64,000 nucleotides of DNA from Candidatus Midichloriaceae bacterium (GCA_044229535.1 JBGASU010000001.1:1406969-1470968); one strand, 5' to 3'; counted from the stretch's first letter, positions 2,453-55,141 are shown. Numbers and translations are program-made. The notes: generated from the letters alone by a model not told the origin.

Positions 2453-2513
2453 TAATCTCTTGATACTTAGAAAATTTTTACCTACTATCTGGTGAATTTG
2501 TTTTGAGGAAAAA

Positions 2514-3664: not shown

Positions 3665-3673
3665 GATATTGCT

Positions 3674-5059: not shown

Positions 5060-5064
5060 TTACC

Positions 5065-5511: not shown

Positions 5512-5512
5512 G

Positions 5513-7667: not shown

Positions 7668-7683
7668 TTAACAAAACTTTAAC
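7668..7683 (+). promoter_or_regulatory. CtrA-box-like site TTAA-N7-TTAAC upstream of the 1182-aa ankyrin gene
   Basis: TTAACAAAACTTTAAC. It ends 22 nt upstream of the -10 hexamer at 7706-7711 and 58 nt upstream of ATG 7741. Confidence 0.5.
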
Positions 7684-7740: not shown

Positions 7741-10700
7741 ATGAACTTGCAGGAATTTAGAGCATTAGACGAATTTCAAAGATTTGATTTTTTAAAAGAA
7801 CTGGCAGGCGATGAACTCAGAGCTTTTGCTAGGGAAGTGGGTGCTGAGCAAGGAGCATCTCCCATGTTAGCAAGGATTTCTGCTAGTCCAAATTCAAACG
7901 ATGCAACTATAAAAAATCAATTAAAGATAGAATTGAGAAAGCTAGGCCTTACTTTTCAAGAGAGGCAGGCTGATATGCAGTTTGATGTTGCTGAACAACC
8001 TCAAGAGCAATTTAGTTGGGAAAAAATTAAAAGAGCGCCGTTCATTGAGCGAAAGCCAACACCGATTGATGAAGCCACAAAAGATGCTTTCTTACAGCAA
8101 TTTTATCAAGGTGAAGTGGTTGATGTTGATACAATAAACCCACTAAGCAATATTCAGGCAGTAAGAGCGCAGGTCGAATTGGTTTGCCAAAAAATGGTTG
8201 GCTATGGCTTTAGAAATTTTAATGACTTGAAAGATAAGTTTGCGGATCTGGCATTTAATATTGAAAGTGCAGAACAGCGTCAAAGAGATTTTTCCAATGC
8301 CAAGCAGATTAAGCAAGTAATGGAGTCGATTTTATACTTTGTGGAAAATACTCCTGAAGTTTCAAGAAGAGAGCTTATTGCAAATTACAAAGATACTAGA
8401 TTTATATGTGGTGATGGGACGCTGCAAAACCTAATTGATATTTTTAGCGAAATGCAATTAGGTAAAGCTGACATAGCTGCCTATGTAGCGTGGGCGAAGA
8501 GGAAAGTAGTTATTGATACGTTCTTGCCAATGTATGAACAAAATTTCTTTCACGAAGCTGGTTTAATTTACCGTATAGGAAATGAAAGGCATTATGTTGA
8601 TTCATTAATTAACGCAGTTGCTGATGAATTTGGTCTGGTAGTTCGAACACAAGATGAGGACAGGTTTATTAAAGACGCATCTAGGTATAGGGAGTTTCTG
8701 CTGGGTGAATTGAACCGAGTTTTTGCACAGCCTGAAGTGCTTAAAAACATTTTTGGCTTGGTAGTCGCTAAAATTTCTTCAAACCTTGAAAATGGCATAG
8801 ATAAGATACTGCCTGTCCAAAACCAAGTGCAAGATTTTTTAGGTAAGCTGGGAGTAGGTGATAAGTATAATTATTTCCATTTGGTGAATTGTAAAGAGAA
8901 TGGACTTAAGGATGACTTCAAAAGGGTTGTAGAGTCAATAGTTGCAAATTACATGCATGAGCAGCGTGTTATCAAGGTATCTAACATAAAACATATTTGC
9001 CAATTATTGAAAATTGCTGGCTCTTATAATTCGCAGTATAGGCAAGTTATTACCAGAGAAAATTTCCCAGAAGACGCGGATAATAACAAGGGATTTGTTA
9101 ACTTTATTTTAATTCAAAATATAGAATTAGATGAAGCTCAATTTGGAACTAAAAGCCCAATATTATATTTTGCGAGAAAAAATAGGAATATTTTTGCAGA
9201 TTTTAATCTTCCCTTTGTATTCATGCAAAGGCTACTGCAAGAAGCATCTGCTGAAGAGTTAAAAGACATTAATATTCCAGCTGACATTTTAAGATCTTCT
9301 CTCTTCTATGTAAAAACTCCAGAGCAAATTGATGTCTTAATTGCTAAGGGTGCTAATATTCAAGAAATTTCTCTTAATGGCGGCAATGCTACACGGGATG
9401 CAGCATTAAGAGGAGAAAGAGCGATAGTAGATAAATTTGCTGAACAGGGAATAGCCCCAATGAATGTTTTTGAAGGCCATGAAGATGGCGTTGACCAAAG
9501 ACGGGAAGAGGCCTTAATAAATGGCATTGTTGCAAATCAAGAAATTCTGCGACACATCGAAGATGGTGTTCCTAATATTTGTAGAATTGTTAAGTGTGGC
9601 ATGGTAAATGCGCTGCGAAAAGCTTTGGAGTTCCCAGAAGGTAGAGACGCATTAAAACTGAAAGATAAAGATGATAACGTAGCATTGCACTATGCAGCGC
9701 GCCACACAAACCCAGAATTGTTTTTGGAGATAGTAAAAACTACTGAAGGGAGAAGAGCAATAGGAGCTTATAATAAAGATAATTTCACTCCTGTTGAAGA
9801 ATTAATAATTCAGGATAGAGTTGATTTAATTAATGAGGTTCTCAAAACGCCCGAAGGTACGTTGCTTATAAATGGTGGTAACGGTAATAAATCTTTTGTT
9901 GAGCTATCATATGAACATAAGAAATATAGTTATCTTAAAACTTTATTGAAATGCAATATCTCTTTAGATCCAATCCTGAAATACAAAAACAAAGGTATGG
10001 TTCAGGATGCTGTGGATCATGAGGATTTTGAAGTATTTGGAATGCTTATGGAGCGTGCAGAGCTGAGAAACAGGTTGTTTCAATTAGAGCAGGATTCTAT
10101 ACATAAGCTGGATCAGCAAGGTTTACTAAAGCCAATATTAGAAAAATATTGGTTAGAAATTTTGGAAGGTATAGATCCTGAAGATATGGCTTTTTTTGCA
10201 GAATTCGTTTTAAAGTTTGGTTTATTAAATCAAGACATAGATGAGAAACATTCTCATGTGCTCTCAAGATTTTTACTATCGTTACAGAATTTTTATTTTC
10301 CAATGACAGATGATCTTGATAAAGTTATTAGCTTGATTATGTCTAACAAAGAGGTGCAAAAATTAGTTGTTACGGTCGACCCTCTCAGACCTCATGAGAA
10401 TGTTTTTAAACGTTTAGTAGCAGCAGGCGCCACTCAAGCTGTAGAGGCAATTCTAAATGATGATTTTCTAAGAAGGAGTCTCTATTTAACAGATGCTCAG
10501 TGCAATACTTTCCTTCATAATGTAGAGTGTAGTGAGGGCGATCCAAGTGCTTTCAATGATTATTATTTAGAAAGTTCAGAACAACAAGACAGTTTTTTTG
10601 ATTGTTTACGAAGCATAGCAGATAACCCGCATTTAAAAGCAGCTTTGCCAAGTCTTCTTTCAACCAGAAATGGTATTGGGTTTACGCCTTTACAATCGGC

Positions 10701-11289
10701 TTTAGAAGACATGCAAGAGTTGTTTCTAATCTTATTAGATTGGAGTGTGAGGCATGAGAACGTTCATTCGTTGCATATTCCAGACAATAAAGGCTGTACA
10801 CCTTTTTATAACGCCTTATTAAAATTGTACGAGATGCATATAATATCTCAGTTTGTTGACGCAGATGCAAGTTTGGTTGATTCGATTTTTGATCATGTAG
10901 ACAACGAAAGGGTGAATGTTATTTCAAGGATACTTGATCAAGCAGGCAACGAAGTCGCCTTTGGTAATGTTTTTGAATTGGTGAAAGACAATCCAATACT
11001 AATGAGAAAATTTATTGACTCTGTTGGATATGAATCAGGGTGTTCTTCGCTTGAATATGCAAGGAGGTATGACATGCCAACAATTGTAGATGCGATATTA
11101 ACTTTTGCTCAAGGTACAAGTCTTGGTTTCTCATTGCCTCCAGCTTCAGTAGAAGCGCAGGCCAGCGCATCTACTGCTTGGATTCCTGATGTTGATGCTG
11201 AAGCAGATGTTGAAATTGCTGACCCAGTATTGAATGAGATGAACAGTGATGAGTTGGAAAAAGCTCGTAGCAAACGTTCTAGGCATTGA
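7741..11289 (+). CDS. Large ankyrin-repeat protein, candidate secreted effector
   Basis: 1182 aa. ANK-like repeats include DKDDNVALHYAARHTNPELFLEIV, NGIGFTPLQSALEDMQELFLILL and DNKGCTPFYNALLKLYE. No signal peptide. Acidic region followed by a basic C-terminus (EKARSKRSRH). Confidence 0.8.
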   Translation: MNLQEFRALDEFQRFDFLKELAGDELRAFAREVGAEQGASPMLARISASPNSNDATIKNQLKIELRKLGLTFQERQADMQFDVAEQPQEQFSWEKIKRAPFIERKPTPIDEATKDAFLQQFYQGEVVDVDTINPLSNIQAVRAQVELVCQKMVGYGFRNFNDLKDKFADLAFNIESAEQRQRDFSNAKQIKQVMESILYFVENTPEVSRRELIANYKDTRFICGDGTLQNLIDIFSEMQLGKADIAAYVAWAKRKVVIDTFLPMYEQNFFHEAGLIYRIGNERHYVDSLINAVADEFGLVVRTQDEDRFIKDASRYREFLLGELNRVFAQPEVLKNIFGLVVAKISSNLENGIDKILPVQNQVQDFLGKLGVGDKYNYFHLVNCKENGLKDDFKRVVESIVANYMHEQRVIKVSNIKHICQLLKIAGSYNSQYRQVITRENFPEDADNNKGFVNFILIQNIELDEAQFGTKSPILYFARKNRNIFADFNLPFVFMQRLLQEASAEELKDINIPADILRSSLFYVKTPEQIDVLIAKGANIQEISLNGGNATRDAALRGERAIVDKFAEQGIAPMNVFEGHEDGVDQRREEALINGIVANQEILRHIEDGVPNICRIVKCGMVNALRKALEFPEGRDALKLKDKDDNVALHYAARHTNPELFLEIVKTTEGRRAIGAYNKDNFTPVEELIIQDRVDLINEVLKTPEGTLLINGGNGNKSFVELSYEHKKYSYLKTLLKCNISLDPILKYKNKGMVQDAVDHEDFEVFGMLMERAELRNRLFQLEQDSIHKLDQQGLLKPILEKYWLEILEGIDPEDMAFFAEFVLKFGLLNQDIDEKHSHVLSRFLLSLQNFYFPMTDDLDKVISLIMSNKEVQKLVVTVDPLRPHENVFKRLVAAGATQAVEAILNDDFLRRSLYLTDAQCNTFLHNVECSEGDPSAFNDYYLESSEQQDSFFDCLRSIADNPHLKAALPSLLSTRNGIGFTPLQSALEDMQELFLILLDWSVRHENVHSLHIPDNKGCTPFYNALLKLYEMHIISQFVDADASLVDSIFDHVDNERVNVISRILDQAGNEVAFGNVFELVKDNPILMRKFIDSVGYESGCSSLEYARRYDMPTIVDAILTFAQGTSLGFSLPPASVEAQASASTAWIPDVDAEADVEIADPVLNEMNSDELEKARSKRSRH

Positions 11290-14762: not shown

Positions 14763-14778
14763 TTAACCATTTCTTAAC
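14763..14778 (+). promoter_or_regulatory. CtrA-box-like site TTAA-N7-TTAAC upstream of the 714-aa orphan gene
   Basis: TTAACCATTTCTTAAC. It ends 51 nt upstream of ATG 14829. The core AAATTAACCATTTnTTAA is shared with 24838-24855. Confidence 0.5.
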
Positions 14779-14828: not shown

Positions 14829-16973
14829 ATGTCCCAGTTCCAACGCTTCATTTCACAAGATTTTTATTTGAGTCGGGATTTTCCAAGCGATGGAAGTGCT
14901 GGCCCATTTACAGGATATGGCGCACAAGAGGAGCAGTTATACAACGCTTATATGGCTGCAAGGAGAGTAGATAATTTTGATGCTGATAAATATCGTAAGG
15001 CTGGAGAGGCATATTTTAAGTTTCAACAAGACTACCGTACTGATCCTAACTCTTCTATTCCACTTGTTTTATCTCAGGAACAGCAGATATTTGAATCTTG
15101 GAAACAAGCTAATCCACAATCCCTAAATCCAGAACCTCTTACTGAGACAACCCGTGCACACTCTGTTATTTATGATCAACTCCCTCCTACATCGATGAAT
15201 AGATTTGAATTCCAAAAAATAATAACGGGTTTACAGGGGGTGGGTGACACCAAATCAGGGGAGGTAAATAATGCTGCTCAGAGGTTTGAAAATGCAAATA
15301 AAAAAGGTAATGAAAAATATGCAGATCTAGGGGCTATTCCTTTGAGAGGAGTTGCAGATTTTGCTAAAGAGTACCAAAAGCAAAATATTGATAAAGATAA
15401 GAAACAACAAGACTTCCCACTTAATATAATTACGGACAGAAAGAATGCGCCAATGCTGAAGCTTGCATCAGAAGATCCTAAACTTGCTGCTGCAGCTATT
15501 GAAGCATTTAAAGAGCGCGGAGGAGAGAAGGGGCTGAATGCTTATAAAGCTGCAGATATTGGTAAAGGTATAGAATTAGCAATGACTGCTGCAAATAATG
15601 TTGTTGGTGAAGATTCAAAAAAACAGGCAATTAAAAATGTAAGGAATTTACTAATCGACAACAAATTTGATCAGAAAAAAGTTAAAGCAATTGAAGATGG
15701 GGTAAAAGGAACGATTCCTCAGAAAACACAATTTGCCGAAAAAATGCGTCAGAATCTAGGGTTGTTTGGAAAAGCTGGGGATGATTATGCAATTAATCTT
15801 CACCCCATAGATAGCTGGAAGAATACAAAAGAAACTGCCAAAAAAATTAAAACAAATAATCCATTTAAATCATTATACAATATAGTAAAATTGGTAGCTT
15901 ATGAAATCCCTAAGTTAGCTGTCTCTTTGGTTGTTGCCACACCTATTGCTGCAATAAGAGCTGGGGTTCAAACTGTAAAAGAGAATAAAAATCAAAGATT
16001 AGCTAAGGCTGCTGAAAATTGTTCGAAATATCCAAAAGTAGCTGCTGCAGTTCGCAATGCTCTTGGAGCTGGTGGTAAGAAAAAAGTTACGAATAAGGAA
16101 TTAAATAAAGTAATGGCTGCTTTAGGTAAGAAAGCCCAAGTTTTAGAAAATTCAACTCTATCAAAAGAAACTATAACTAATGCGTTAAATTCAAAAGCTT
16201 CAGCAACACATCATCTATCTAATGATACCAAGAAGGATTATGTAGTTAAACAAGAAAAAGAAAAGCAAATACGTAAGCTCGTTGATGATGCTCCTGAGCT
16301 TAAAAAATTGGATAAAAATGCTAAAGCGGAGATTGTAGCAAAGCTAATGGATCTTCATAAACCAGATAATTCGCCTGATCCTAAGAAAAACCAAGCGGCA
16401 CATCACTCTCTCAATTTCGCTTTAAAAAATGAGACATTAGTATCAAGACTAGTTAATGAATCGGTGAAAGTTCATAGTGCTGTAACCCGCGACCAAAATC
16501 TCAATAAAAAAGTTGAGCAGCAATTCAAAGATACATCGAAATTAACCAATTTAGAGCAAGTAGCTCAAGGTAAGAGCTCTGTAGTTCTAGATGATCTATA
16601 CAAATTAGCAGATAGAAGTAAAAAACCTGAAGTCTCTCAAGAAGTGGATTCGCAATTAAGGCAAAGTTTTAAAAGCGAGCAAACAAAACTAGAAGAAAAA
16701 AGGCAAGCTTGGGAGAAGGCATATAGTAAAGGTGAAGATACTATAAATTACGAGAAAGACTATATAAAGCAACAACAGGTTTTAGATAAGGCAGGTAAAG
16801 AATATTTTAAAGAAAAAATCAAAACTGCAGTGCCAGAAGAAGCAGAAAAAATGGCGAACAACATTGCGGGCTATAAACAGGCCATAGCCAATGCCGACAA
16901 GAGGATAGGTGAGCTGAGCCCAGATCAAGTGCCAAAAACAGGTCAAACAACAACTCGAGCACGTGGGGTGTAA
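14829..16973 (+). CDS. Hypothetical Lys/Glu-rich 714-aa protein with one central hydrophobic segment
   Basis: Long ORF with coding-like composition and no recognisable catalytic motif. Hydrophobic stretch IVKLVAYEIPKLAVSLVVATPIAAI. Basic C-terminal tail. Confidence 0.6.
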   Translation: MSQFQRFISQDFYLSRDFPSDGSAGPFTGYGAQEEQLYNAYMAARRVDNFDADKYRKAGEAYFKFQQDYRTDPNSSIPLVLSQEQQIFESWKQANPQSLNPEPLTETTRAHSVIYDQLPPTSMNRFEFQKIITGLQGVGDTKSGEVNNAAQRFENANKKGNEKYADLGAIPLRGVADFAKEYQKQNIDKDKKQQDFPLNIITDRKNAPMLKLASEDPKLAAAAIEAFKERGGEKGLNAYKAADIGKGIELAMTAANNVVGEDSKKQAIKNVRNLLIDNKFDQKKVKAIEDGVKGTIPQKTQFAEKMRQNLGLFGKAGDDYAINLHPIDSWKNTKETAKKIKTNNPFKSLYNIVKLVAYEIPKLAVSLVVATPIAAIRAGVQTVKENKNQRLAKAAENCSKYPKVAAAVRNALGAGGKKKVTNKELNKVMAALGKKAQVLENSTLSKETITNALNSKASATHHLSNDTKKDYVVKQEKEKQIRKLVDDAPELKKLDKNAKAEIVAKLMDLHKPDNSPDPKKNQAAHHSLNFALKNETLVSRLVNESVKVHSAVTRDQNLNKKVEQQFKDTSKLTNLEQVAQGKSSVVLDDLYKLADRSKKPEVSQEVDSQLRQSFKSEQTKLEEKRQAWEKAYSKGEDTINYEKDYIKQQQVLDKAGKEYFKEKIKTAVPEEAEKMANNIAGYKQAIANADKRIGELSPDQVPKTGQTTTRARGV

Positions 16974-32887: not shown

Positions 32888-34333
32888 TTACCTTTGGTTA
32901 CCTCTATCTCGGCTTTGCTCTATATTTTTCACCTGTTCATCATAGAATTCAGTAATATCTCCAGACATAGCTTTTGCTGCGCCTTCTAATACATTCCATC
33001 CTGCAGAAAATGCGTTATAGGCCTTACTTTTTACGCAACCTTTTAACAACAAAAATTTCATTTCTGTAGGAAGTAATTTGTTTAGCAGAGTGCTTAATGG
33101 TGGGCAAACTCCTGCTGACAAGAACATTTCGATCACTTCTTTATTTCGATGAGCTGCACATACAGTAAGAGCATTGTCACCAAATCTATTCATCGGCTCT
33201 AAAGCTGTTCTTAGGAGGTCAGGGTAATCTTTGATTGCACTAATTAGTTCTGCAATCAATTTGGTATCATTACGCATAGCAGCCCTAAAAAGTAAATTTG
33301 CATTAAAAAAATCACGATTATCAAAAGAACTTTTTAAGAAATTATAATTGTATTCTGCTGCTTCTAGTATTGATTTCATTAACTCGTTATCTCCATTATT
33401 TACTGCATGGTAGAGCGTGGTGAAGCCAGAATTATCTCTTGCCCAGATGTTGTAATTAGGGTGAGCAAAGCATTTTGAGAAAATATATGCAGCTGTACTA
33501 TCAGACAAGCGATTGAAATTATAAATATAATGCCCTTGGGATATTAGATCTAAAGCCAGAGCTATATTGCCATTTCCCAACGCAGTAATTAGTTCTGGGC
33601 TATTTTGGCCATTATGCCCTTCATAATAACCTAAAAACCTATGCAGCTCTTTTAGTAGATCTTTATTACCAGCAACAAATAAATCTTTATAAAAGTCCTG
33701 CAAATCTTCCTTAGTATCTAGATTGTATAGTGGCATATTTTGTATGCCTTTTATTCCTTGGCCACATCCATTCTCAACAAGGTATTTGAATATTTCAAAT
33801 TGCCCATATCTCAAAGCAAAAGCTAGCGGTGATATAAATTCTCTTACGTTATCTAATGTTTTAATAGTGGGCAGTCTAAAGTCCTCAGCTTCATTAAAAT
33901 TTTCTTTTGTCTTCTCAATTTCTTCTGGTGTCTTATTTCTCTGCTCGCCTGCGCGATAATCGAAGACTTTGAACTCCTTTTTATGATATGGCGCTAGAAT
34001 TTTTAAGAGTTTTAAGCTGTTGTGTCTAATTGCCGCTTCCAAAGCATTATCGCCATCAATACTCTTTTCTTCATTGGTTTTTGGGTCTGTATATACTGCT
34101 GAGCTTCTTAAATTCAAAACTTCAGCATTTTTAGCAACTATAGCGTTTACAACTGTTTCTAAATTAAAGCTCATATCCCAAGCATCCTGCTCTGACGGGG
34201 CAAGCATGTGCAAAATGGTGTTCCCATTTTTATCTTGCTCTAATATTTGCTCTGGAGTTAAGTCGGCAATTATCTCAAGCGCTTGTTCGGTTGTAACTCC
34301 TCTAACATTAAAAATGTCGGATATACTTCTCAT
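32888..34333 (-). CDS. Ankyrin-repeat protein, candidate effector
   Basis: 481 aa. ANK repeats include KNGNTILHMLAP, DGDNALEAAIRHNSLKLLKIL, SGFTTLYHAVNNGDNELMKSIL and FGDNALTVCAAHRNKEVIEMFLSAG. No signal peptide. Basic C-terminus (SRDRGNQR). Confidence 0.85.
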   Translation of the reverse strand: MRSISDIFNVRGVTTEQALEIIADLTPEQILEQDKNGNTILHMLAPSEQDAWDMSFNLETVVNAIVAKNAEVLNLRSSAVYTDPKTNEEKSIDGDNALEAAIRHNSLKLLKILAPYHKKEFKVFDYRAGEQRNKTPEEIEKTKENFNEAEDFRLPTIKTLDNVREFISPLAFALRYGQFEIFKYLVENGCGQGIKGIQNMPLYNLDTKEDLQDFYKDLFVAGNKDLLKELHRFLGYYEGHNGQNSPELITALGNGNIALALDLISQGHYIYNFNRLSDSTAAYIFSKCFAHPNYNIWARDNSGFTTLYHAVNNGDNELMKSILEAAEYNYNFLKSSFDNRDFFNANLLFRAAMRNDTKLIAELISAIKDYPDLLRTALEPMNRFGDNALTVCAAHRNKEVIEMFLSAGVCPPLSTLLNKLLPTEMKFLLLKGCVKSKAYNAFSAGWNVLEGAAKAMSGDITEFYDEQVKNIEQSRDRGNQR

Positions 34334-34998: not shown

Positions 34999-35117
34999 TT
35001 TAAATATAGCTTTTTGACTGCGTTAGGCATGATATTGTCTCAATACTAAGACGTGTTGTCAATCAGGTAGAATTGAAATCTTAACAAAAAAGATGTTGAC
35101 ATCTTAACACTTGCTTG

Positions 35118-35146
35118 TTTACAAGTGCTGTAAAACGTAATATAAT
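35118..35146 (+). promoter_or_regulatory. Sigma70-like promoter TTTACA-17-TATAAT upstream of the phoB-like gene
   Basis: -35 TTTACA at 35118-35123, 17-nt spacer, -10 TATAAT at 35141-35146. ATG at 35175. Confidence 0.45.
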
Positions 35147-35174
35147 CAGTAATATAGAATAAAAAAGTAGTTTT

Positions 35175-35894
35175 ATGGTAAAAAATTTGCAACCAATGAT
35201 ATTAGTTGTTGAAGACGATGATTCTATATCTTCCATAATCAAGTATAATTTGAAAAAAGCGGGATACTTAGTCAATGTTGTTGATAATGGAAATGATGCC
35301 ATTGATTTTGCAAAAGGTAGTACTCCAGATTTAGTTTTATTAGATTGGATGCTTCCAGGAATGACAGGAATTGATGTATGTAAAGCATTAAGGTCTATGC
35401 CTGAAACAGCTAATATTCCAATTATAATGTTATCTGCTAAAGGCGAAGAAATAGATAAAATTACAGGTCTTGAAAGAGGAGCTGATGATTATATCACAAA
35501 ACCTTTCTCACCAGTCGAGTTGTCTGCAAGAATAAAGGCCGTATTAAGAAGAATAAGACCAGCTTTCTCTGGTAAATTTTTAGAGTTTGATGATATAATA
35601 ATGGATCTTTCTATGCACACAGTGTCGCGTGATGGTAAAGAATTAAAAGTATCGCCTATTGAATTCAAAATTCTCCAATCATTGATGGAAAATCCAGGCA
35701 GAGTTCTATCTCGTGAAGCGATAATGGATAAAATTTGGGGCACTGAAATCTATGTTGGAACTAGAACTATAGATGTTCACATTACTAGATTAAGAAAAAT
35801 TTTAGTCGCTTCAAGCAAGGACGGCGAAGATGTTATCAAGACAGTTAGGCTTGGTGGTTATGCTCTAAAAACTGGTAAGAAAAAAGAAAAATAA
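35175..35894 (+). CDS. phoB: OmpR/PhoB-family response regulator, PhoB-like
   Basis: 239 aa. DLVLLDWMLPGMTGIDV, MLSAKGEEIDKITGLERGADDYITKPFSPVELSARIKAVLRR and RTIDVHITRLRK closely match the PhoB pattern as I remember it. Confidence 0.8.
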   Translation: MVKNLQPMILVVEDDDSISSIIKYNLKKAGYLVNVVDNGNDAIDFAKGSTPDLVLLDWMLPGMTGIDVCKALRSMPETANIPIIMLSAKGEEIDKITGLERGADDYITKPFSPVELSARIKAVLRRIRPAFSGKFLEFDDIIMDLSMHTVSRDGKELKVSPIEFKILQSLMENPGRVLSREAIMDKIWGTEIYVGTRTIDVHITRLRKILVASSKDGEDVIKTVRLGGYALKTGKKKEK

Positions 35895-35915: not shown

Positions 35916-38507
35916 ATGGAATTCTTGAAAAAGAGATTTATAGACAATAAGACATTAGTCTCAAAAGCCAATAGTTTTGTAGTAAGGAATCATTACGGTC
36001 AGACAGCACCAATTTATGTCGGTTATTTTCTAGCTTTTATTTTTACAGCGCTTATGGCGTTTTTATTCGATGGTAACCCATTGCTTATAACTGGCGTATT
36101 CCTAATATTTTTTGGCTTTGCCTGTCTTATTAATAGTTTTTATCTGAATAAATATTGTGAAATTAATAACGCTATAGAGTTTCAAAATGCAATATATACG
36201 GCTGCATTGAGAGGAGATTGTGATTACTGTTTAATTTTCAATGAGGATGGAGAAGTAGTATATGCAGATCCCAGATTGCAAAAACTCTCAGCTGCCAAAG
36301 TTTTTAAAAATGTATCTGAGTTAGATATGTTATTGGGAGCTTTTAAAGTATCTCCTGAAAAGACACAGCTTATTCATGAAGTAGTATACCGCAGTAAATT
36401 CAAAGAACAAACACCAGACCATCATCAGACAATTAGTAAAAATGATCGCTCAGTAATACTGAAGCCGTTTCATATTGATGAAGGTGATTTTTCTATAGCG
36501 GTTTGGACATTAGAAAGACCTGCTGGTTTTACGACTATAAAAATCTCAAAGATTGAAGAAGAAAACGAAATTTCTCAAATTGTTGAGAGTATAGCAATAG
36601 GTTTTTATGAGTTGGATCACACTGGGCATTTGCTAAAATGTAACGAGTATTTGGCAAGAATGTTAGGATATGACAAGAAAGAGTTGATTATAAAAGATCT
36701 AAAATTTGATTCTTTAATTGATAAAGATGAATCAATGGACTCTCTTATCTCTACACCCAAAATGGCTAATGCTATTCTTGGGAACTGGCAAGGTTTTTTA
36801 ACTTTCAGGGCGAAATTTAACGAGCATATACATGCCTTTGTGATACAAAAAGCATATTTCAAATCAAATGGGCAAATAGATAGAATCATAGGTTATGTTA
36901 TCAAGCTTCAAGATGAATCTTTGATGCTTAAATCAAAAGGTGTAGAGAAAGGTTGGATTGATTATAGTTGGAAATGCTTTTTTGAAAACTCGCCATATCC
37001 TGTAGCAATTCTAGATAAAGCTGGGGTTGTTTTAAAGATTAACAGATCTTTTGAAGAAATTTTACCAGCAAGTTATTTGGGTATTGAGTTTGAAAAAATA
37101 TTTGTAGATTCTGATAAAGATTTGATAGGAAAACAAATAGCTGACATAGTTTCAAAAAATGCACAGCCAGTTCCAATTAGAAATGCTAGAGTAAATGATT
37201 CTAAGAGGGTCTTGGACGTTTATTTAGGAAAAATACTTGATCTAAACGGCGATACTTATGGATTTATGGTGCGTATTGCCGATATTACTCAGCAGCTAGA
37301 GTTGGAAAACAGCTTATCTCACGCGCAAAGAATGCAGACAATAGGACATCTTGCTGGCTCAATAGCGCATGATTTTAATAATCTGCTTACAGCCATAGCT
37401 GGATTCTGTGATTTGCTGTTTATGAGACATACGGTTGGAGATCCATCATTTGCACACATTATGCAGATAAAGCAAAGTGCAGACAGGGCAACAAATCTAG
37501 TAAGAAGGCTTTTGGCTTTTTCTAGAAAACAAACTTTAAAGCCGCAGATAATAAACCCTGCTGAGCTTTTTACAGATTTCTCTTCATTGATACAAAGGCT
37601 AATAGGATCAGAGATTAATTTTTCTCAGAAGATAGATCCTAATATATGGAGTGTAAAAGTCGATCCAGTCCAGATGGAACAAGTTATTCTAAATCTTATT
37701 GTTAATGCTCACCAAGCTATGGAAAATGGAGGCAATTTAGAGGTTAGAGTCAAAAATGTAATCCTGCAAAAAGATGATATTGTTTTAAGGGGGGTGGTAG
37801 CTCCATCGGGTGAAGGAATGCCGCCAGCTGGAGAATATGTTTGTATAGAAGTAGAAGATAATGGATCTGGTATTCCTCAAGATATAATACTTAAGATATT
37901 TGAACCATTCTTTACTACTAAAGCTGAAAAGTCTGGTACAGGGCTTGGGTTGTCTACTGTATATGGTATAGTTCACCAGTCTGAGGGCTATATTTATGTT
38001 AGGAGTGTTGTAGGTAAAGGAACAAATTTTATAATTTATTTTAAGCGTCACCAATTATCATTGGAGGAGCAGATTGAATTACAAAGAATAGAGCAAGAAA
38101 AGATCAAAGAAGAGGCTAATAATAAGCAAGATTACTCTGGAAAAGGGGTGATAGTATTGGTTGAAGATGAGGAAGCAGTTCGTTTATTTGCCAAAAATGT
38201 TTTGATTAGTAAGGGATATGATGTAATAGAATTTAACTCAGCAAAAAGCGCATTAGAGCAGCTAAGAGCGGATATTCATAGAATTGATTTGATAATCTCT
38301 GATGTAATGATGCCAGAAATGACTGGTCCAGCGTTTATAAGCGAGTTAAGTAAAATCAAGCCTAATATAAATGTTATTTTCGTATCAGGCTATGGAGAAG
38401 AGGCATTCAGTGAAGAATATGGAGAAAAGAGGGATTTCCACTTTATTCCTAAGCCATTTAGTCTAAAACAGCTCGTGGCTAAAGTAAAAGAGGTGATAGG
38501 AAGTTGA
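35916..38507 (+). CDS. cckA: Hybrid sensor histidine kinase/response regulator, CckA-like
   Basis: 863 aa. Two N-terminal TM segments, PAS-like regions, and H-box IGHLAGSIAHDFNNLLTAI followed by GDPSFAHIMQIKQSADRATNLVRRLLAFSRKQTLKP (CckA-like). N-box LNLIVNAHQAM, G boxes DNGSGI and GTGLGLSTVYG. C-terminal receiver VLVEDEEAV...LIISDVMMPEMTG. Confidence 0.8.
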   Translation: MEFLKKRFIDNKTLVSKANSFVVRNHYGQTAPIYVGYFLAFIFTALMAFLFDGNPLLITGVFLIFFGFACLINSFYLNKYCEINNAIEFQNAIYTAALRGDCDYCLIFNEDGEVVYADPRLQKLSAAKVFKNVSELDMLLGAFKVSPEKTQLIHEVVYRSKFKEQTPDHHQTISKNDRSVILKPFHIDEGDFSIAVWTLERPAGFTTIKISKIEEENEISQIVESIAIGFYELDHTGHLLKCNEYLARMLGYDKKELIIKDLKFDSLIDKDESMDSLISTPKMANAILGNWQGFLTFRAKFNEHIHAFVIQKAYFKSNGQIDRIIGYVIKLQDESLMLKSKGVEKGWIDYSWKCFFENSPYPVAILDKAGVVLKINRSFEEILPASYLGIEFEKIFVDSDKDLIGKQIADIVSKNAQPVPIRNARVNDSKRVLDVYLGKILDLNGDTYGFMVRIADITQQLELENSLSHAQRMQTIGHLAGSIAHDFNNLLTAIAGFCDLLFMRHTVGDPSFAHIMQIKQSADRATNLVRRLLAFSRKQTLKPQIINPAELFTDFSSLIQRLIGSEINFSQKIDPNIWSVKVDPVQMEQVILNLIVNAHQAMENGGNLEVRVKNVILQKDDIVLRGVVAPSGEGMPPAGEYVCIEVEDNGSGIPQDIILKIFEPFFTTKAEKSGTGLGLSTVYGIVHQSEGYIYVRSVVGKGTNFIIYFKRHQLSLEEQIELQRIEQEKIKEEANNKQDYSGKGVIVLVEDEEAVRLFAKNVLISKGYDVIEFNSAKSALEQLRADIHRIDLIISDVMMPEMTGPAFISELSKIKPNINVIFVSGYGEEAFSEEYGEKRDFHFIPKPFSLKQLVAKVKEVIGS

Positions 38508-38521
38508 TTTTTATATAAAAA

Positions 38522-38537
38522 TTAACTTTTTATTAAC
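38522..38537 (+). promoter_or_regulatory. CtrA-box-like site TTAA-N7-TTAAC upstream of the truncated CckA paralog
   Basis: TTAACTTTTTATTAAC. It ends about 46-49 nt upstream of the start (TTG 38583 or ATG 38586). The second half-site continues as TTAACCATT, as at 14763 and 24841. Confidence 0.45.
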
Positions 38538-38582
38538 CATTATTCAAATAGACTTAATTAATAAGGTTTTAGAGAGTTTGAT

Positions 38583-39413
38583 TTGATGAAAAAGAAACTG
38601 GAAAATTTAGTAAGTAATAAAGTGCTAGATACAGCACCCAGCATGATTGCTGATATCAATGGTGCGCTTATAGATGTATCTCCAAAAAATGAAATAGAAA
38701 ATATTATAGAATCTTATGAGACCGCATTGGAAATGCAGCAAGAAAGTGCAAAAAAATCTGAGGGGCAAATTGTAATTAAAAAGAGGTTTATTGATAATAT
38801 GGCTATGTTGAAAAAAGCTGATAATTTTATTCATCGTAAGCACTTCGGGAAAACAGCGCCGCTATTTGTTGCTTATGTTGTTGTTTTTGTTTTAAGTATG
38901 ATATTCTTGTTAATAAATGAACAGAATTCTATTTTGGTTCTGATAGTAGCATTATTAATAGGTGCTGCATGCCTAGTGAATGTTCATTTCTTGAAAAAGT
39001 TTAATCGTATAAATAATGCTATAGAATTCCAAAATTATATATTTGCAAATGCATTGAGAAGCGATAATGAGTATTGCATTATTTTCAATGAAGATGGCGA
39101 TGTGGTCTATACAGACCCTAGAATTCAAAAGTTAGAAGTTTCTGAAGAAGCAAAAAAAGTGCATGACTTAGATTTGTTGTTAATGAGTTTTGAAGTGGAT
39201 GACTCAAAAATACAAGCCGTCAAGGATGCTATATTTAAAAAGAAGATTGATGAAAACCAAGAGACGTCATCAGCTGGTGATTTGCTAGCTCTGACTCTGA
39301 GTTTTGCTCATCCTAAAAAAGGCTCATTTGTAATAAATGTTAATCAACTTGAGCATCCAGTTGGTTACACGGTTCTTAAGATGACAAAAAATATGGATAA
39401 TAAGGGGATATAA
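38583..39413 (+). CDS. Stand-alone paralog of the CckA-like N-terminal (2-TM + first PAS-like) module, without kinase domains
   Basis: 276 aa. Residues ~66-200 align with residues ~5-140 of ORF 35916: KKRFIDN..., RKHFGKTAPLFVAY versus RNHYGQTAPIYVGY, and NNAIEFQNYIFANALRSDNEYCIIFNEDGDVVYTDPRIQKL versus NNAIEFQNAIYTAALRGDCDYCLIFNEDGEVVYADPRLQKL. ATG at 38586 is the likely start. Confidence 0.75.
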   Translation: MMKKKLENLVSNKVLDTAPSMIADINGALIDVSPKNEIENIIESYETALEMQQESAKKSEGQIVIKKRFIDNMAMLKKADNFIHRKHFGKTAPLFVAYVVVFVLSMIFLLINEQNSILVLIVALLIGAACLVNVHFLKKFNRINNAIEFQNYIFANALRSDNEYCIIFNEDGDVVYTDPRIQKLEVSEEAKKVHDLDLLLMSFEVDDSKIQAVKDAIFKKKIDENQETSSAGDLLALTLSFAHPKKGSFVINVNQLEHPVGYTVLKMTKNMDNKGI

Positions 39414-39592
39414 TGTTGGACATGTCTCAAGTAGTAATGGGATTTGAGACGCAAGAGGAGATGCTGAACAAGGTCAGTTTATCTTTAGTAAATTCTGAGC
39501 CACAAAATAATATAGAAAAAATAATATTTGAGTACGAGAAAATTCTCGAGATTTGGCAGGCAGAAGAGCTGGAGAAAAATAAGGTAAAATAA
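39413..39592 (+). CDS. 59-aa ORF homologous to the N-terminal extension of the 276-aa paralog (possible remnant; not in ORF track)
   Basis: TAATG overlap with the upstream stop. Hand translation: MLDMSQVVMGFETQEEMLNKVSLSLVNSEPQNNIEKIIFEYEKILEIWQAEELEKNKVK. Compare SPKNEIENIIESYETALEMQQESAKKSE in the 276-aa protein. Confidence 0.45.
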   Translation: MLDMSQVVMGFETQEEMLNKVSLSLVNSEPQNNIEKIIFEYEKILEIWQAEELEKNKVK

Positions 39593-52795: not shown

Positions 52796-54567
52796 TAGTT
52801 CATTACTTCAGTTGATATAGCAGAATCAGCATTATTAGCGCTATCCAATTCTTTAGCCAACTCTTTGCCATCGATTAATTTTTTCTTAACTATATTAGGT
52901 GGTAGTTTTGTTTTTTTAGCATCTGTTTCTATAGTCATTTGCGGTGAGCTAGCTTTTTTAAGCTCTGGTAGTTTTTCAGATATGACTTCAGGGTTAGTTG
53001 TTGTTTTTATTCCTGTGTCAGTGTCCAAAGAAGTGCCAAAAACTCTTCCTGATATAGAAGATATCGATTTACTCATTGAAGAGAAAAAGCCATCATCATT
53101 CTTTGGTTCTTCTTCAACTACAGTTATAAATGTTGCTTGCTTATTTGACGGTTCTGGTTTTACGAGTTCAGTTTTTGACTCTTCTTTTGCTAACGTAGGG
53201 TTGTTTTTGTGTTCAGCAACAGGCTGTAATTTTTGTATTGGAGCTTTGGTTGGCTGAGTTATTCTTCTTGCTATTCCAGATTCAAGCTCTTTTCTTATAG
53301 TTATAGTATCTATTATAGTTGCTAATTCTATATTGCCGTTTTTCTGGGCTATACCTAAGGCGTGTTCGCCAGTATTGTTCATAGGTAAAGGTGAAGCACC
53401 TTTGCCTAACAGAAGATTCGCCATCCTGCTATCATTGTTTCTAACTGCAATCATAAGTGGTGTATCGCCATTCTTATCTCTGATATTTATATCCGCACCT
53501 TCTTCAATAAGTTTTGCCACTGGTTGAGTGGAGCCTTTTTGAACAAAAGAGAAGATAGCATTATTTTTATCTGGTTCAGCCTCCGCTACAATAGTTTCAA
53601 ATTGTCCTCTTAATGCTGAGGATGCGTAATCTACAGGATATTTGCCGATATAATCAGTTGTGAAAGCTTTTGCACCGCTTTTAATTAGAGATGTGAAAAT
53701 TTCAACGTTATTATTGGTTGCAGCAATATGAAGTGCGGTTTTCCCATCTTTTGCTTGAGTGTTAACATTCACGCCTTTTGTTATTAGATATCTTACAGTC
53801 CTTAAGTGGTTAGTTTGAATAGCGTACATGAGGGCGCTATAGCCATTTTCGGTTAGTACAGAATTTAAATCGGCACCATTTTTTATTAGAGTGCTAATAG
53901 CTCCTACATCATCTTTTTGTATCGCTGCAAAAAGTAATTCTGAATATTGTTTTTGATATACAACTGTAGGTAGATGCTTGTTATTTTCATCGAACTCCGC
54001 TCGTTGAAAAAATTTGGGCTGGATAGCTTTGTTTTCGAATTTTTTTCTAGTTAATGTGTTGTCTGGTTTGAAGCTTCCTTCGAGATTTTGATTTTCTTGA
54101 AATATGCTAGATAAAGAAGAGCTGATATGCTTATCGCTTGGGGCTCTTTTTGTTTGTTCCCAAGACGCTTTCGTTTGAGCCTTGTTTTTTATCTCAACTG
54201 GCTTTGCTTTTGATTTTTTTGCTTTTGGTTTTTCAGCAATAATTGGCTCTTCTTTTTGTTCTTCAGCGATAACTTGAGGTTTTTGTGGCGCTTCAGGTGG
54301 CGTAGGGACGTTTACGGCAGGGACGTTCTTTGGTGCGTCTACTTTTAGTTGTGTATCTATTTTATTTTTAATTTCAGCTTCTTTTTTTATTTCATTTGGA
54401 TTCGGGATTGGTAACTTAGGGCTCGATTCGGCATTAGAGTTTGTTGTGTTGGAGTCGAAAGAGCCAATATCTCCCCATTCGTCGAAGTTATTTTGTGCAT
54501 ATGCAATGAGCGAAAAGCCAACTAGGTAACTTGAAATAAGGAAAGTCTGAAATAAGTGTTTATTCAT
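52795..54567 (-). CDS. Signal-peptide-bearing ankyrin-repeat protein
   Basis: 590 aa. Signal peptide MNKHLFQTFLISSYLVGFSLIAYA. ANK repeats include NGYSALMYAIQTNHLRTVRYLITKGVNVN, DGKTALHIAATNNNVEIFTSLIKSGA and NGDTPLMIAVRNNDSRMANLLLGKGA. Pro/Lys-rich linker regions. Confidence 0.85.
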   Translation of the reverse strand: MNKHLFQTFLISSYLVGFSLIAYAQNNFDEWGDIGSFDSNTTNSNAESSPKLPIPNPNEIKKEAEIKNKIDTQLKVDAPKNVPAVNVPTPPEAPQKPQVIAEEQKEEPIIAEKPKAKKSKAKPVEIKNKAQTKASWEQTKRAPSDKHISSSLSSIFQENQNLEGSFKPDNTLTRKKFENKAIQPKFFQRAEFDENNKHLPTVVYQKQYSELLFAAIQKDDVGAISTLIKNGADLNSVLTENGYSALMYAIQTNHLRTVRYLITKGVNVNTQAKDGKTALHIAATNNNVEIFTSLIKSGAKAFTTDYIGKYPVDYASSALRGQFETIVAEAEPDKNNAIFSFVQKGSTQPVAKLIEEGADINIRDKNGDTPLMIAVRNNDSRMANLLLGKGASPLPMNNTGEHALGIAQKNGNIELATIIDTITIRKELESGIARRITQPTKAPIQKLQPVAEHKNNPTLAKEESKTELVKPEPSNKQATFITVVEEEPKNDDGFFSSMSKSISSISGRVFGTSLDTDTGIKTTTNPEVISEKLPELKKASSPQMTIETDAKKTKLPPNIVKKKLIDGKELAKELDSANNADSAISTEVMN

Positions 54568-55141
54568 CTTTTGGTACTAATTTTTTAATTTCTTTTTCCA
54601 CAACTGTAGTAACTAATGCAGGTAGATGCTTATTTAGCCACTCACTTATTTGTGGTTTAATAAGCTCTATGACTATATCTTCTACAGTTCCGCCAGAGCG
54701 TAGTTTTAAGGTTTCAATCTCGTTTTTTTCTGTCATCTTCATAAAGTTTTTAAGAGTTTGTCTCGAAGTTGCGGCTACAGCTTCGTCTAATAAAGTTTCT
54801 ATATTTCCAGTATTTGCGGGTTTTTGAGGAGCTTGTGCTAAACCTTGAAAAGCAGGAGTGGGCAAAGGTTGCGATACTTGATTTGCAATGGCATTATCTA
54901 TAGTCGCTAGAATATCATTTGACGGCTGTGGAGTTAAAGGTGTTTCTAACTTTGGAGACTGCGGTTCGGGGGTAGGCTTAGATTCGTTTGCAGCTTTCAC
55001 CTCTTGAATAACCTCTGTTAGCTCTAATACTTCGTCATTAGCTGTGGGAGTGGTATTTGTTATCACTTCTTTTATATCATTTAGTATTTGATCAATTCCT
55101 TGTTCTTGCTTTTCTGCAAGCTGTGCACTTTCTTTCGTCAT
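54560..55141 (-). CDS. DUF2497 (PopZ-like) protein
   Basis: 193 aa. Acidic/Pro-rich middle and C-terminal VEDIVIELIKPQISEWLNKHLPALVTTVVEKEIKKLV, matching the DUF2497/PopZ C-terminal motif. Confidence 0.7.
   Translation of the reverse strand: MTKESAQLAEKQEQGIDQILNDIKEVITNTTPTANDEVLELTEVIQEVKAANESKPTPEPQSPKLETPLTPQPSNDILATIDNAIANQVSQPLPTPAFQGLAQAPQKPANTGNIETLLDEAVAATSRQTLKNFMKMTEKNEIETLKLRSGGTVEDIVIELIKPQISEWLNKHLPALVTTVVEKEIKKLVPKDE

Follow-up and report, generated by a model that had tools for sequence, protein, structure and literature searches.

A conserved two-gene unit beside cckA in Midichloriaceae, comprising a kinase-less copy of the CckA sensor end and an acidic partner, is probably a feedback modulator

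The window analyzed (the whole 64-kb stretch of DNA) carries a conserved cluster of four genes on the plus strand. A response regulator gene is followed by a gene for a CckA-like hybrid histidine kinase, a gene for a kinase-less paralog of the N-terminal end of that kinase and a gene for a small acidic protein (Table 1). The CckA-ChpT-CtrA pathway, in which the phosphorelay runs from CckA by way of ChpT to CtrA and CpdR, is the central, usually essential circuit of the cell cycle and development in alphaproteobacteria. Neither ctrA nor chpT was present within the window, and no second OmpR-type regulator was found there. The best NCBIfam match of the response regulator was PhoB (TIGR02154) at 292 bits, against a cut-off of 296 bits, with 157 bits for CtrA. 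Identification of this regulator as CtrA was rejected; it is PhoB/RegX3/MtrA-like. It is encoded immediately 5' of cckA in the related loci L001, L002, L003, L006 and L066.

Table 1. Coordinates of the genes and features of the cckA locus within the window
Feature	Position	Strand	Basis
OmpR/PhoB-family response regulator, 239 aa, opening the conserved cluster	35175..35894	+	Pfam Response_reg + Trans_reg_C
CckA-like hybrid histidine kinase, 863 aa	35916..38507	+	ORF, Pfam, NCBIfam, TM peaks
Duplicated segment, kinase residues 1-212 (basic juxtamembrane motif, TM hairpin, PAS-like domain 1)	35916..36551	+	BLASTP, segment alignment
Conserved promoter-like spacer between cckA and paralog	38508..38585	+	6-locus alignment
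CtrA-type box TTAACTTTTTATTAAC (TTAA-N7-TTAAC), 48 nt 5' of the paralog ATG	38522..38537	+	Motif scan
Putative -10-like hexamer TAATAA, ∼21 nt downstream of the box	38559..38564	+	Sequence and alignment
Kinase-less CckA N-terminal paralog, 275 aa	38586..39413	+	BLASTP, orthologs, dN/dS
Paralog extension, aa 1-62, Lys-rich tail + acidic orphan domain, predicted cytoplasmic	38586..38771	+	Alignment, charges
Paralog aa 63-140, basic juxtamembrane motif (KKRFIDN...RKHFG) + two-TM hairpin	38772..39005	+	Segment alignment, TM peaks
Paralog aa 141-270, cap helix (NNAIEFQN...) + PAS-like domain	39006..39395	+	AF2, Foldseek, alignment
Acidic helix-loop-helix protein, 59 aa, copy of the extension domain	39413..39592	+	BLASTP, HMMs, AF2

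Pfam analysis of the kinase returned PAS, HisKA, HATPase_c and a C-terminal receiver, and an H-box (HDFNN) was read from the sequence. With TM peaks at aa 33 and aa 56, the architecture runs from an N-terminal juxtamembrane motif through 2 TM segments, PAS-like domain 1, PAS 2, PAS 3, DHp and CA to the receiver. This is the domain order of CckA (2 TM, PAS domains, HisKA with H-box, HATPase_c, C-terminal receiver). The top NCBIfam family was the Brucella-type CckA (556 bits, E 8e-167, profile positions 85-867 of 868); scores against the CckA equivalogs NF046020 and NF046026 were 556.6 and 405.6 bits, below the cut-off of 1000 bits. The kinase was named CckA-like, or CckA-type, and considered divergent because its score lies under the cut-off, yet CckA is by far the best family with near-full coverage of the profile. 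The Caulobacter CckA profile aligned only from residue 357 onward, a comparison that does not establish Caulobacter PAS-A as a homolog of PAS-like domain 1.

BLASTP paired the paralog with residues 4-212 of the kinase at 89/210 identities (42%, E 7e-56). A first-pass annotation had described a 276-aa ORF copying the two TM segments and first PAS-like segment of the kinase, and the alignment contains the near-identical stretches on which that description was based (NNAIEFQN and C(I/L)IFNEDG(D/E)VVY(T/A)DPR(I/L)QKL). The proposed TTG start at 38583 was not retained, as orthologs place the start at ATG 38586. Pfam found no HisKA, HATPase_c or Response_reg domain in the paralog, in agreement with the reported loss of DHp, catalytic and receiver domains. 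Without a DHp domain bearing a phospho-acceptor His and a catalytic ATP-binding domain it does not qualify as a histidine kinase. In the segment alignment its C-terminus falls exactly at the PAS1/PAS2 boundary of CckA. The novel N-terminal extension reported earlier was also recovered; it is ∼60 aa long, absent from the kinase and characterized by the motif [IL]..I.G.LI[DN]..P.N..E.I...YE..LE..Q.

TM peaks of the paralog were located at aa 92 and aa 115, separated by an outer loop of ∼5 residues. Identity to the kinase was 62% in the cap helix + b1-b2, 48% in the basic juxtamembrane motif, which is common to CckA and the paralog, and 25% in the TM hairpin. The similarity is therefore not confined to low-complexity TM segments, a concern raised with the initial description, since the hairpin is the least similar part. 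The hairpin is the most diverged segment between paralog and CckA, yet it is conserved inside each group. The cap helix + b1-b2 (ATEFQNALFASA...FCLI...DG..VY.D) is the most conserved segment both between paralog and CckA and across the wider family. The PAS-like part was modeled by AF2 with the topology bb-aaa-bbb at pLDDT 70-80, inside a model of low mean pLDDT (54). Foldseek searches with this model gave top matches that were almost all PAS domains, but with E ∼1e-3 and low TM-scores, and Pfam gave no PAS hit in the paralog.

The 59-aa protein aligned to the paralog extension with 14/38 identities (E 1e-6). Reciprocal HMMs agreed with the proposal that it is related only to the extension: an extension-only HMM recovered the small proteins (E 4e-9 to 2e-15), and conversely the extensions were recovered by one made from the small proteins alone (E 2e-8 to 7e-13). 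The first-pass view of two progressively truncated paralogs of the kinase N-terminus had to be abandoned for this ORF, because the kinase has no such extension; the 59-aa ORF is a copy of the non-kinase part of the paralog. The TAATG coupling was confirmed, with the paralog stop at 39411-39413 and the small ORF ATG at 39413. A Shine-Dalgarno sequence (AAGGGGA) lies within the last codons of the paralog gene, and both this sequence and the start/stop coupling are kept among orthologous loci. The AF2 model (pLDDT 74) has helices at residues 14-25 and 33-58, and the pI is 4.4.

No relatives of the extension/59-aa domain were found outside the clade in Pfam (to E 10), a PDB profile search, a profile search of 5.8 billion proteins or Foldseek. 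Neither gene of the unit gave a Response_reg match in Pfam that would indicate a receiver (CheY-like) fold. Sda and KipI are Bacillus anti-kinases, and Sda resembles the 59-aa protein in being small, two-helix and encoded near a sensor kinase. An Sda-type assignment was rejected: Pfam to E 10 returned only noise, and the PDB sequence profile and Foldseek searches gave no match between the 59-aa protein and Sda or KipI.

The spacer between cckA and the paralog has 77% mean identity over 6 loci and contains long invariant runs, despite saturated synonymous sites. No Rfam family and no significant fold (z = -0.97) were detected in it. The CtrA-like box noted earlier proved to be a perfect TTAA-N7-TTAAC. 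Across the window 8 boxes of this type were counted, where 2.2 were expected. In 7/7 lineages the paralog ATG is preceded by a full box at a distance of 45-52 nt, in line with a CtrA-regulon promoter, in which such a box is expected to be conserved among orthologs. In L003 the box is shifted and its spacer differs (motif turnover); in L066 it is the only box in the locus. CtrA is taken here to be the reader of the box, an assumption from general knowledge of Rickettsiales. The position of the hexamer reads TATAAG in orthologs. Two further intergenic boxes show the same layout of box then hexamer. In other MAGs, the regions upstream of ∼200-aa stand-alone relatives yielded a single loose TTAA-N7-TTAA match (L043) and no box with a full TTAAC half-site, so the CtrA-type box is specific to the Midichloriaceae unit.

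A search for the module in related genomes, as had been suggested, identified an intact paralog in seven Midichloriaceae-type lineages. The orthologs (P0002-P0007) are 260-276 aa long and 44-68% identical, all intact, with 80 invariant columns. The order response regulator-cckA-paralog is kept wherever the contig reaches (window, L001, L002, L003 and L066); the short contigs L007 and L010 cover the 3' end of cckA and the paralog. The small ORF is present in 6 lineages (window, L001, L002, L003, L010 and L007, where it is clipped by the contig end). It is absent in L066 and is therefore not an obligatory partner of the paralog. In L002 flgA-flgH have been relocated to the other strand, and the paralog, small ORF and CtrA-type box remain beside cckA.

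The proposed dN/dS comparison of paralog and kinase was computed and was uninformative, with saturated dS (1.85 to undefined); orthologs were compared instead. For the closest pair (L001 vs L010) the paralog has a dN of 0.073, a dS of 1.87 and a dN/dS of ∼0.04. Two signs of a pseudogene were thus lacking: the paralogs of the seven lineages show no frameshifts or stops, and dN/dS in the closest pair is not near 1. The small ORF has a dN of 0.15 with saturated dS. The ratio of paralog dN to CckA N-terminal dN is only 1.6-1.9. In an NJ tree of only 100 bootstraps, in which deep nodes are weak, the paralogs form a monophyletic group (100%) whose branching follows that of CckA; the group falls among the CckA N-termini of Midichloriaceae/Rickettsiales (77%).

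Taken together, the conserved unit of sensor copy and acidic partner is probably a new feedback modulator and not gene debris. An ancestor of one Midichloriaceae subclade would have duplicated the 5' end of cckA, with the cut at the PAS1/PAS2 boundary. The copy would then have been fused to a new ∼60-aa acidic domain, and a second duplication of this domain would have yielded the free 59-aa protein. If expressed, the paralog is predicted to be an inner-membrane hairpin protein with its extension, basic juxtamembrane motif and single PAS-like domain all in the cytoplasm. Lacking DHp, catalytic and receiver domains, it cannot signal alone. The suggestion that a membrane-anchored, kinase-less module modulates or titrates CckA is partly supported, as it fits the purifying selection, the synteny, the box and the clean cut at a domain boundary.

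The explanation that we favor, with about even confidence, is that the unit acts in trans as a CtrA-driven modulator of CckA clustering or of its kinase/phosphatase balance, under feedback. Through the retained cap-helix/PAS-1 surface the paralog may join or cap CckA oligomers; alternatively, it may compete for a partner bound by that surface. Either route would shift the density-dependent kinase/phosphatase balance of CckA in one direction or the other. Because a CtrA-type box is part of the unit's own conserved promoter, the amount of modulator would depend on CtrA∼P, itself the output of CckA, which would make the circuit a feedback loop. Accessory interactions may be the role of the acidic extension and its free copy, whether homotypic or with the basic juxtamembrane motif as a docking site. 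Divergence of the TM hairpin counts against this explanation, as it could reflect insulation of the paralog from CckA instead of mixing of the two.

Several known systems offer comparisons. In Caulobacter CckA, PAS-A is responsible for oligomerisation and for activation of the kinase in a density-dependent manner (PMC4853435; bioRxiv 10.1101/323444). Osp of Rhodobacter (Cereibacter) sphaeroides is a CtrA-activated, direct inhibitor of CckA with a single response-regulator-like domain (PMC9430884). Osp is likewise a small accessory protein, acts directly on CckA, has a CtrA-binding site at its gene, takes part in feedback and is restricted to a subclade; it is, however, soluble, has a receiver fold and binds the transmitter (DHp/CA) domain. 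The paralog is instead a membrane-anchored duplicate of the sensor end of CckA itself without a receiver fold, and the analogy is functional only. The PAS-only DivL of Rhodobacterales (PMC9430884) and the DivL pseudokinase of Caulobacter are regulators of the CckA kinase/phosphatase switch through PAS-PAS contacts (PMC9430884; bioRxiv 10.1101/323444). Like the paralog, these are kinase-dead or kinase-less PAS proteins; they differ in deriving from DivL, not CckA, and in having no acidic extension or small partner.

Small non-catalytic membrane proteins tune kinase/phosphatase activity through TM/juxtamembrane contacts in YycH/YycI-WalK, SaeP/SaeQ-SaeS, MgrB-PhoQ and SafA-PhoQ, and some of these regulators are encoded in the operon of their kinase. 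We know of none that is a paralog of the sensor module of its kinase. The logic of dominant-negative microproteins and RetS-GacS heteromers is comparable, in that an oligomeric signaling protein is poisoned or retuned by a truncated or related paralog. RetS works through DHp heterodimers and microproteins are described mainly for eukaryotic transcription factors, whereas the part retained in the 275-aa paralog is TM + PAS only.

Distinctly less probable than CckA modulation is a paralog that is functional but CckA-independent, sensing the same upstream ligand or partner and serving as a separate sensor, scaffold or partner sink, with the extension and 59-aa protein as output or adaptor. The strong conservation of the cap helix + b1-b2 agrees with a ligand or partner site in common, divergence of the TM hairpins is paralog-specific, and the ∼200-aa stand-alone relatives lie far from cckA. 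Such independence sits poorly with the rearranged L002 locus, where the paralog stays attached to cckA, and with the lack of a recognisable output domain.

An unlikely elaboration involves PopZ, the polar hub protein of Caulobacter, whose N-terminal client-binding motif directly recruits CckA and ChpT. The acidic domain of the extension and the free 59-aa protein would mimic this motif, making the pair a membrane-anchored surrogate for, or competitor of, the PopZ hub. Its TM/PAS part, resembling CckA, would direct it to CckA clusters; the PopZ-like peptide, whether fused or free, would dock on the shared basic juxtamembrane motif, and under CtrA feedback this would set CckA packing density and hence kinase versus phosphatase activity. 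In a wider sense, the sensor end of CckA would be a separable subunit, repeatedly released from the kinase, here through duplication and elsewhere through gene fission. PopZ was the top non-family match of three extension/59-aa HMMs, but a weak one (E 0.024-1.3), and hhalign of the domain against PopZ N-termini gave P 0.026 over 21 columns with a probability of 1.9%.

Also unlikely is a role of both ORFs as accessory genes of the flagellum, transcribed together with flgA-flgH from a CtrA-dependent promoter, their CckA likeness being only historical. The box could primarily serve the flagellar genes, as the unit lies upstream of flgA-flgH in 4/5 loci reaching that far (window, L001, L003 and L066), where these genes come next and no terminator was predicted. 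In many alphaproteobacteria, flagellar genes are under CtrA control (PMC9430884; bioRxiv 10.1101/220293). When flgA-flgH moved in L002, however, paralog, small ORF and box stayed with cckA, and neither ORF resembles any flagellar family in Pfam. Decay of a tandem duplication into pseudogenes or chance ORFs, the alternative first put forward, would agree with the faster evolution of the paralog and the loss of the small ORF in L066 but is refuted, to within a very small residual doubt, by intact full-length orthologs despite saturated synonymous sites, the low dN/dS, the invariant columns, the conserved promoter box, the retained translational signals and similarity beyond the TM segments.

Much of the Caulobacter DivJ/DivK machinery is absent from Rickettsiales, so that a layer of CckA control is missing from the picture in these bacteria. 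Judged from sequence, a conserved kinase-less copy of the CckA sensor end preceded by a CtrA box is a candidate for the missing control layer in obligate intracellular bacteria. Wider searches indicated repeated origins of kinase-less CckA N-terminal modules among Rickettsiales-like alphaproteobacteria. In ∼30 MAG loci from uncultured Rickettsiales-like genomes, cckA exists as two stably separate genes, one encoding 2TM-PAS-PAS and the other PAS-DHp-CA-REC, and the ∼200-aa stand-alone copies of the sensor end have independent origins in other lineages. Together these make action of the sensor module in trans plausible. The pattern suggests that the CckA sensor end is an autonomous subunit, which would change how signal input to CckA is modeled, and the split loci provide natural split systems for reconstitution work. 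Dismissal of the ∼330-aa 'KKK..W' matches as frameshift or slippage artefacts of cckA was rejected, as their junctions show all three frame offsets, varied gaps and their own start codons.

The four genes of the cluster, encoding a response regulator, a CckA-type hybrid histidine kinase, a kinase-less paralog of the kinase N-terminus and a 59-aa protein, lie in one direction and are followed by flgA, flgH and an S49 peptidase gene, identified with Pfam. The Pfam domains of the kinase were PAS, HisKA, HATPase_c and a C-terminal receiver. Its top NCBIfam family, by a wide margin, was Brucella-type CckA (556.6 bits, E 8e-167, profile positions 85-867 of 868); the score lay below the 1000-bit equivalog cut-off of the CckA families, and the protein was therefore labelled CckA-type, divergent. 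The response regulator was ruled out as CtrA, scoring 157 bits on CtrA against 292 on PhoB (PhoB cut-off 296); its nearest solved relatives were RegX3, MtrA and BaeR. A spacer of 21 nt separates it from cckA in an operon-like arrangement, and the pairing is kept as far as L006, a locus of a distant Rickettsiales MAG. The region upstream of the regulator gene (34999-35174) is strongly conserved and contains TTGACA, TTAAC half-sites and a match to TTTACA-17-TATAAT at 35118-35146.

Positions of features, in window coordinates unless preceded by the name of a locus
Feature	Position	Strand	Remark
Response regulator, OmpR/PhoB family, 239 aa	35175-35894	+	
Hybrid histidine kinase, CckA-type, 863 aa	35916-38507	+	
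Paralog ORF	38583-39413	+	276 aa as first called
59-aa ORF	39413-39592	+	start ATG and upstream TAA stop overlap by one base
Intergenic box	7668-7683		58 nt upstream of 1182-aa ankyrin-repeat protein gene (7741-11289, +); -10-like hexamer after box
Intergenic box	14763-14778		51 nt upstream of 714-aa protein gene, no Pfam family (14829-16973); -10-like hexamer after box
PopZ homolog	54563-55141	-	DUF2497 match 7e-18; homologs named cell pole-organizing protein PopZ
Split cckA example, ORF1	L017:5001-6020		
Split cckA example, ORF2	L017:6014-7600		
Stand-alone 2TM+PAS gene	L014:4989-5600		
Stand-alone 2TM+PAS gene	L031:4899-5486		
Stand-alone 2TM+PAS gene	L036:776-1372		
Stand-alone 2TM+PAS gene	L036:1397-1993		
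Stand-alone 2TM+PAS gene	L038:4929-5540		
Stand-alone 2TM+PAS gene	L039:4974-5576		
Stand-alone 2TM+PAS gene	L042:1094-1693		
Stand-alone 2TM+PAS gene	L043:4962-5564		
Stand-alone 2TM+PAS gene	L046:4758-5408		
Stand-alone 2TM+PAS gene	L047:4866-5486		

The first-pass annotation had described both small ORFs as progressively truncated copies of the kinase N-terminus. This held for the 276-aa ORF, which aligned with kinase residues 4-212 at 89/210 identities (42%, 64% positives, E 7e-56); the near-identical stretches originally quoted are contained in this alignment. Identity was 48% in the juxtamembrane motif (KKRFIDN...RKHFG), 25% in the TM hairpin, 62% in the cap helix after TM2 and the first two strands (NNAIEFQN...C[IL]IFNEDG.VVY.DPR) and 34% in the remainder of the PAS-like domain. 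The hairpin is thus the least similar segment, the reverse of what a low-complexity TM artefact would give. The paralog ends exactly where CckA runs on into PAS-2, and its start was placed at the ATG at 38586 by ortholog alignment, giving 275 aa. Hydropathy analysis gave two TM helices in both proteins with an outer loop of ~5 residues, and the Lys/Arg-rich flanks imply an N-in/C-in hairpin in each. The AF2 model of the paralog, calculated from a shallow alignment, had a mean pLDDT of 54, with 70-80 in a C-terminal domain of bb-aaa-bbb topology. Foldseek matches of this domain in the PDB were almost all PAS domains at a modest E of ~1e-3, and Pfam found no PAS domain in the paralog; 'PAS-like' is a reasonable label, short of proof.

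The 59-aa ORF proved not to be a kinase copy. Since the kinase lacks any counterpart of the paralog's N-terminal extension, it is this novel domain that the 59-aa ORF duplicates. The pairwise signal was weak (14/38 identities with extension residues 16-53, E 1e-6). Homology to the extension only, as originally proposed, was borne out by reciprocal searches among 2160 six-frame ORFs: with an HMM of six extensions only, the four small proteins in the test set scored E 4e-9 to 2e-15, and with one of five small proteins only, the extensions scored E 2e-8 to 7e-13. The common signature is [IL]..I.G.LI[DN]..P.N..E.I...YE..LE..Q. The 59-aa protein is acidic (pI ~4.4) and predicted to form helix 14-25, a loop and helix 33-58 (pLDDT 74). 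In the extension a Lys-rich tail precedes an acidic core; the juxtamembrane motifs are basic. No relatives of the domain were found in Pfam, the PDB, the 5.8-billion-protein collection or Foldseek.

Related genomes, where the first-pass annotation had suggested looking for the stand-alone module, contained it in six further lineages, with ~195-260-aa 2TM+PAS relatives elsewhere. The search of 5.8 billion proteins located five paralog orthologs (262-276 aa, 44-68% identical), and a sixth, P0007 (260 aa), came from an exhaustive profile search among 1.84 billion representatives. The order regulator-cckA-paralog-small ORF is the same in the ortholog loci L001, L002 and L003, and short contigs carried paralog and small ORF. 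In L066, the locus of P0007 and the most divergent lineage, the order is regulator-cckA-paralog-flgA-flgH; the paralog has its extension and box, the spacer to flgA is just 60 nt (L066:4236-4295) and there is no small ORF, so the 59-aa partner is dispensable or was lost there. In L002 flgA-flgH have been relocated to the opposite strand (2393-3780, -), upstream of a CDP-alcohol phosphatidyltransferase (CDP-OH_P_transf) gene, with the paralog pair still beside cckA; the pair is therefore uncoupled from the flagellar genes.

The alternative that the array records a decaying tandem duplication was refuted by this retention of orthologs, by the selection on them and by 80 invariant columns in the paralog alignment. 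Synonymous sites were saturated in nearly every ortholog comparison. The closest pair, L001/L010, gave dN 0.073, dS 1.87 and omega ~0.04 for the paralog, and dN 0.15 with saturated dS for the small ORF; paralog-versus-kinase dN/dS, the check initially proposed, was uninformative owing to saturated dS. Non-synonymous change in the TM+PAS part of the paralog was 1.6-1.9x faster than in the CckA N-terminus, a rate best described as relaxed yet far from neutral. On sequence grounds, the paralog and 59-aa genes are a real, conserved functional unit.

The CtrA-like box noted before the paralog was confirmed as a full TTAA-N7-TTAAC (38522-38537 in the window), 45-52 nt upstream of the paralog ATG in 7/7 lineages. 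We take this box to be a CtrA site from the CtrA consensus, and CtrA would be expected to read it. Although synonymous sites are saturated, the 78-nt cckA-paralog spacer keeps a mean identity of 77% over six loci, and it carries AAAATTAAC-N6-TTAAC; the spacer between the 59-aa ORF and flgA is less conserved. The L003 box has another upstream half-site and a different spacer, representing motif turnover, and the L066 box is the sole TTAA-N7-TTAAC in 6.5 kb. Eight boxes were observed in the window against 2.2 expected (0/100 shuffles reached 8). Three of them lie between genes, 49-58 nt ahead of a start codon on the same strand, with a -10-like hexamer ~20-25 nt further on; the genes behind the two listed in the table are possible CtrA-regulon members, one effector-like. 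The cckA-paralog spacer matched no Rfam family and folded no better than shuffles (z = -0.97). There is no ctrA gene within the window; CckA/CtrA are conserved across Rickettsiales (PMC7397232, PMC4426382).

An NJ tree of the TM+PAS module, weak at its deeper nodes, unites the paralogs in a single clade (100% bootstrap) whose branching mirrors the Midichloriaceae CckAs (98%) and which nests within Midichloriaceae/Rickettsiales CckA N-termini (77%). In L006 (MAG GcC11-34) the regulator-cckA pair is followed, in place of the paralog, by a 172-aa ankyrin-like ORF at 5059-5577 overlapping the cckA stop. The nested clade and the paralog-free L006 together indicate a single duplication in the subclade ancestor, then vertical inheritance.

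Exhaustive searching also turned up numerous proteins in two size classes, ~195-230 aa and ~320-360 aa, whose similarity to the CckA N-terminal module begins at their first residues. They match the N-terminal end of the Brucella CckA profile collinearly and fall into no Pfam family. Scanning genomes yielded 52 loci in three groups, mostly from MAGs labelled 'Rickettsiales', 'Alphaproteobacteria' or Holosporales. In ~30 of the 52 (L015, L017, L019-L024, L026-L030, L032-L035, L037, L040, L045, L052, L055-L065) cckA is split, with a 2TM-PAS-PAS ORF1 (306-361 aa, C-terminal KKK.W in many) adjoining a PAS-DHp-CA-REC ORF2 (~500-550 aa where complete). Frameshift error was ruled out: the junctions occur in all three frame offsets with their own start codons, and the split therefore looks like a genuine conserved gene fission, not a sequencing error. 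Ten of the 52 loci have stand-alone 2TM+PAS proteins (~195-260 aa) that no kinase gene follows, some of them from MAGs that also carry a split cckA. Their contexts are varied and away from cckA; L036 has two in tandem, and P0024 is an internal gene adjoining a cytochrome oxidase operon. The third group has full-length cckA, e.g. Wolbachia. The stand-alone proteins tend to cluster with same-lineage CckAs (60-65% bootstrap), which suggests repeated, independent release of the sensor module. No description of stand-alone CckA sensor paralogs or conserved split cckA was found in the open-access literature.

With decay set aside, a modulator or decoy of CckA is the best-supported reading of the paralog, for which we infer the following mechanism. 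In Caulobacter CckA, kinase activity depends on surface density through the first PAS domain, and the protein oligomerises via PAS-A and the receiver (PMC4853435; bioRxiv 10.1101/323444). Keeping the membrane anchor, juxtamembrane motif and cap-helix/PAS-1 surface, the paralog could enter or cap CckA assemblies; alternatively, it could compete for whatever binds the cap-helix/PAS-1 surface. Either role would shift the CckA kinase/phosphatase balance. Two points call for caution: PAS-like 1 is no more than a candidate equivalent of PAS-A, as the Caulobacter CckA profile aligns only from residue 357, and the paralog-specific TM divergence could mean insulation from CckA. A CtrA-box promoter on the paralog would create a feedback loop formally like that of Osp, a CtrA-activated direct CckA inhibitor of Rhodobacter, and there is also a resemblance to the PAS-only DivL of Rhodobacterales (PMC9430884). 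The 59-aa protein is translationally coupled to the paralog and homologous to its extension, which suggests that it binds the extension or that both bind one same target; by charge complementarity, this acidic domain might dock on the basic juxtamembrane motif of CckA and paralog. The pair would belong with accessory or truncated-paralog regulators of histidine kinases, a kind already known.

That the extension/59-aa domain is a PopZ mimic is an attractive idea, unproven and in our judgement improbable. The N-terminus of the window's PopZ (motif GIDQILNDIKEVITNTTP...) was the top non-family match of all three extension/small-protein HMMs, at sub-significant E-values of 0.024-0.42 among 2160 ORFs and 0.08-1.3 among 6762 ORFs, and in profile-profile comparison 21 columns aligned with P 0.026. 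For the N-terminal hub of PopZ, at least eleven binding clients are described (PMC11519897), and direct partners of PopZ include CckA and ChpT (bioRxiv 10.1101/220293).

The window also encodes, at 5513-7366 (-), another sensor histidine kinase; it has a dCache_1 periplasmic domain, and its gene lies a short way upstream of a tRNA gene and of one intergenic CtrA-type box. Two large proteins with ankyrin repeats, a type characteristic of the effector repertoires of intracellular symbionts, are encoded at 32888-34333 (-) and 7741-11289 (+). Both the overall GC content (32-40%) and the presence of flagellar genes are in keeping with a flagellated symbiont of Midichloriaceae type.
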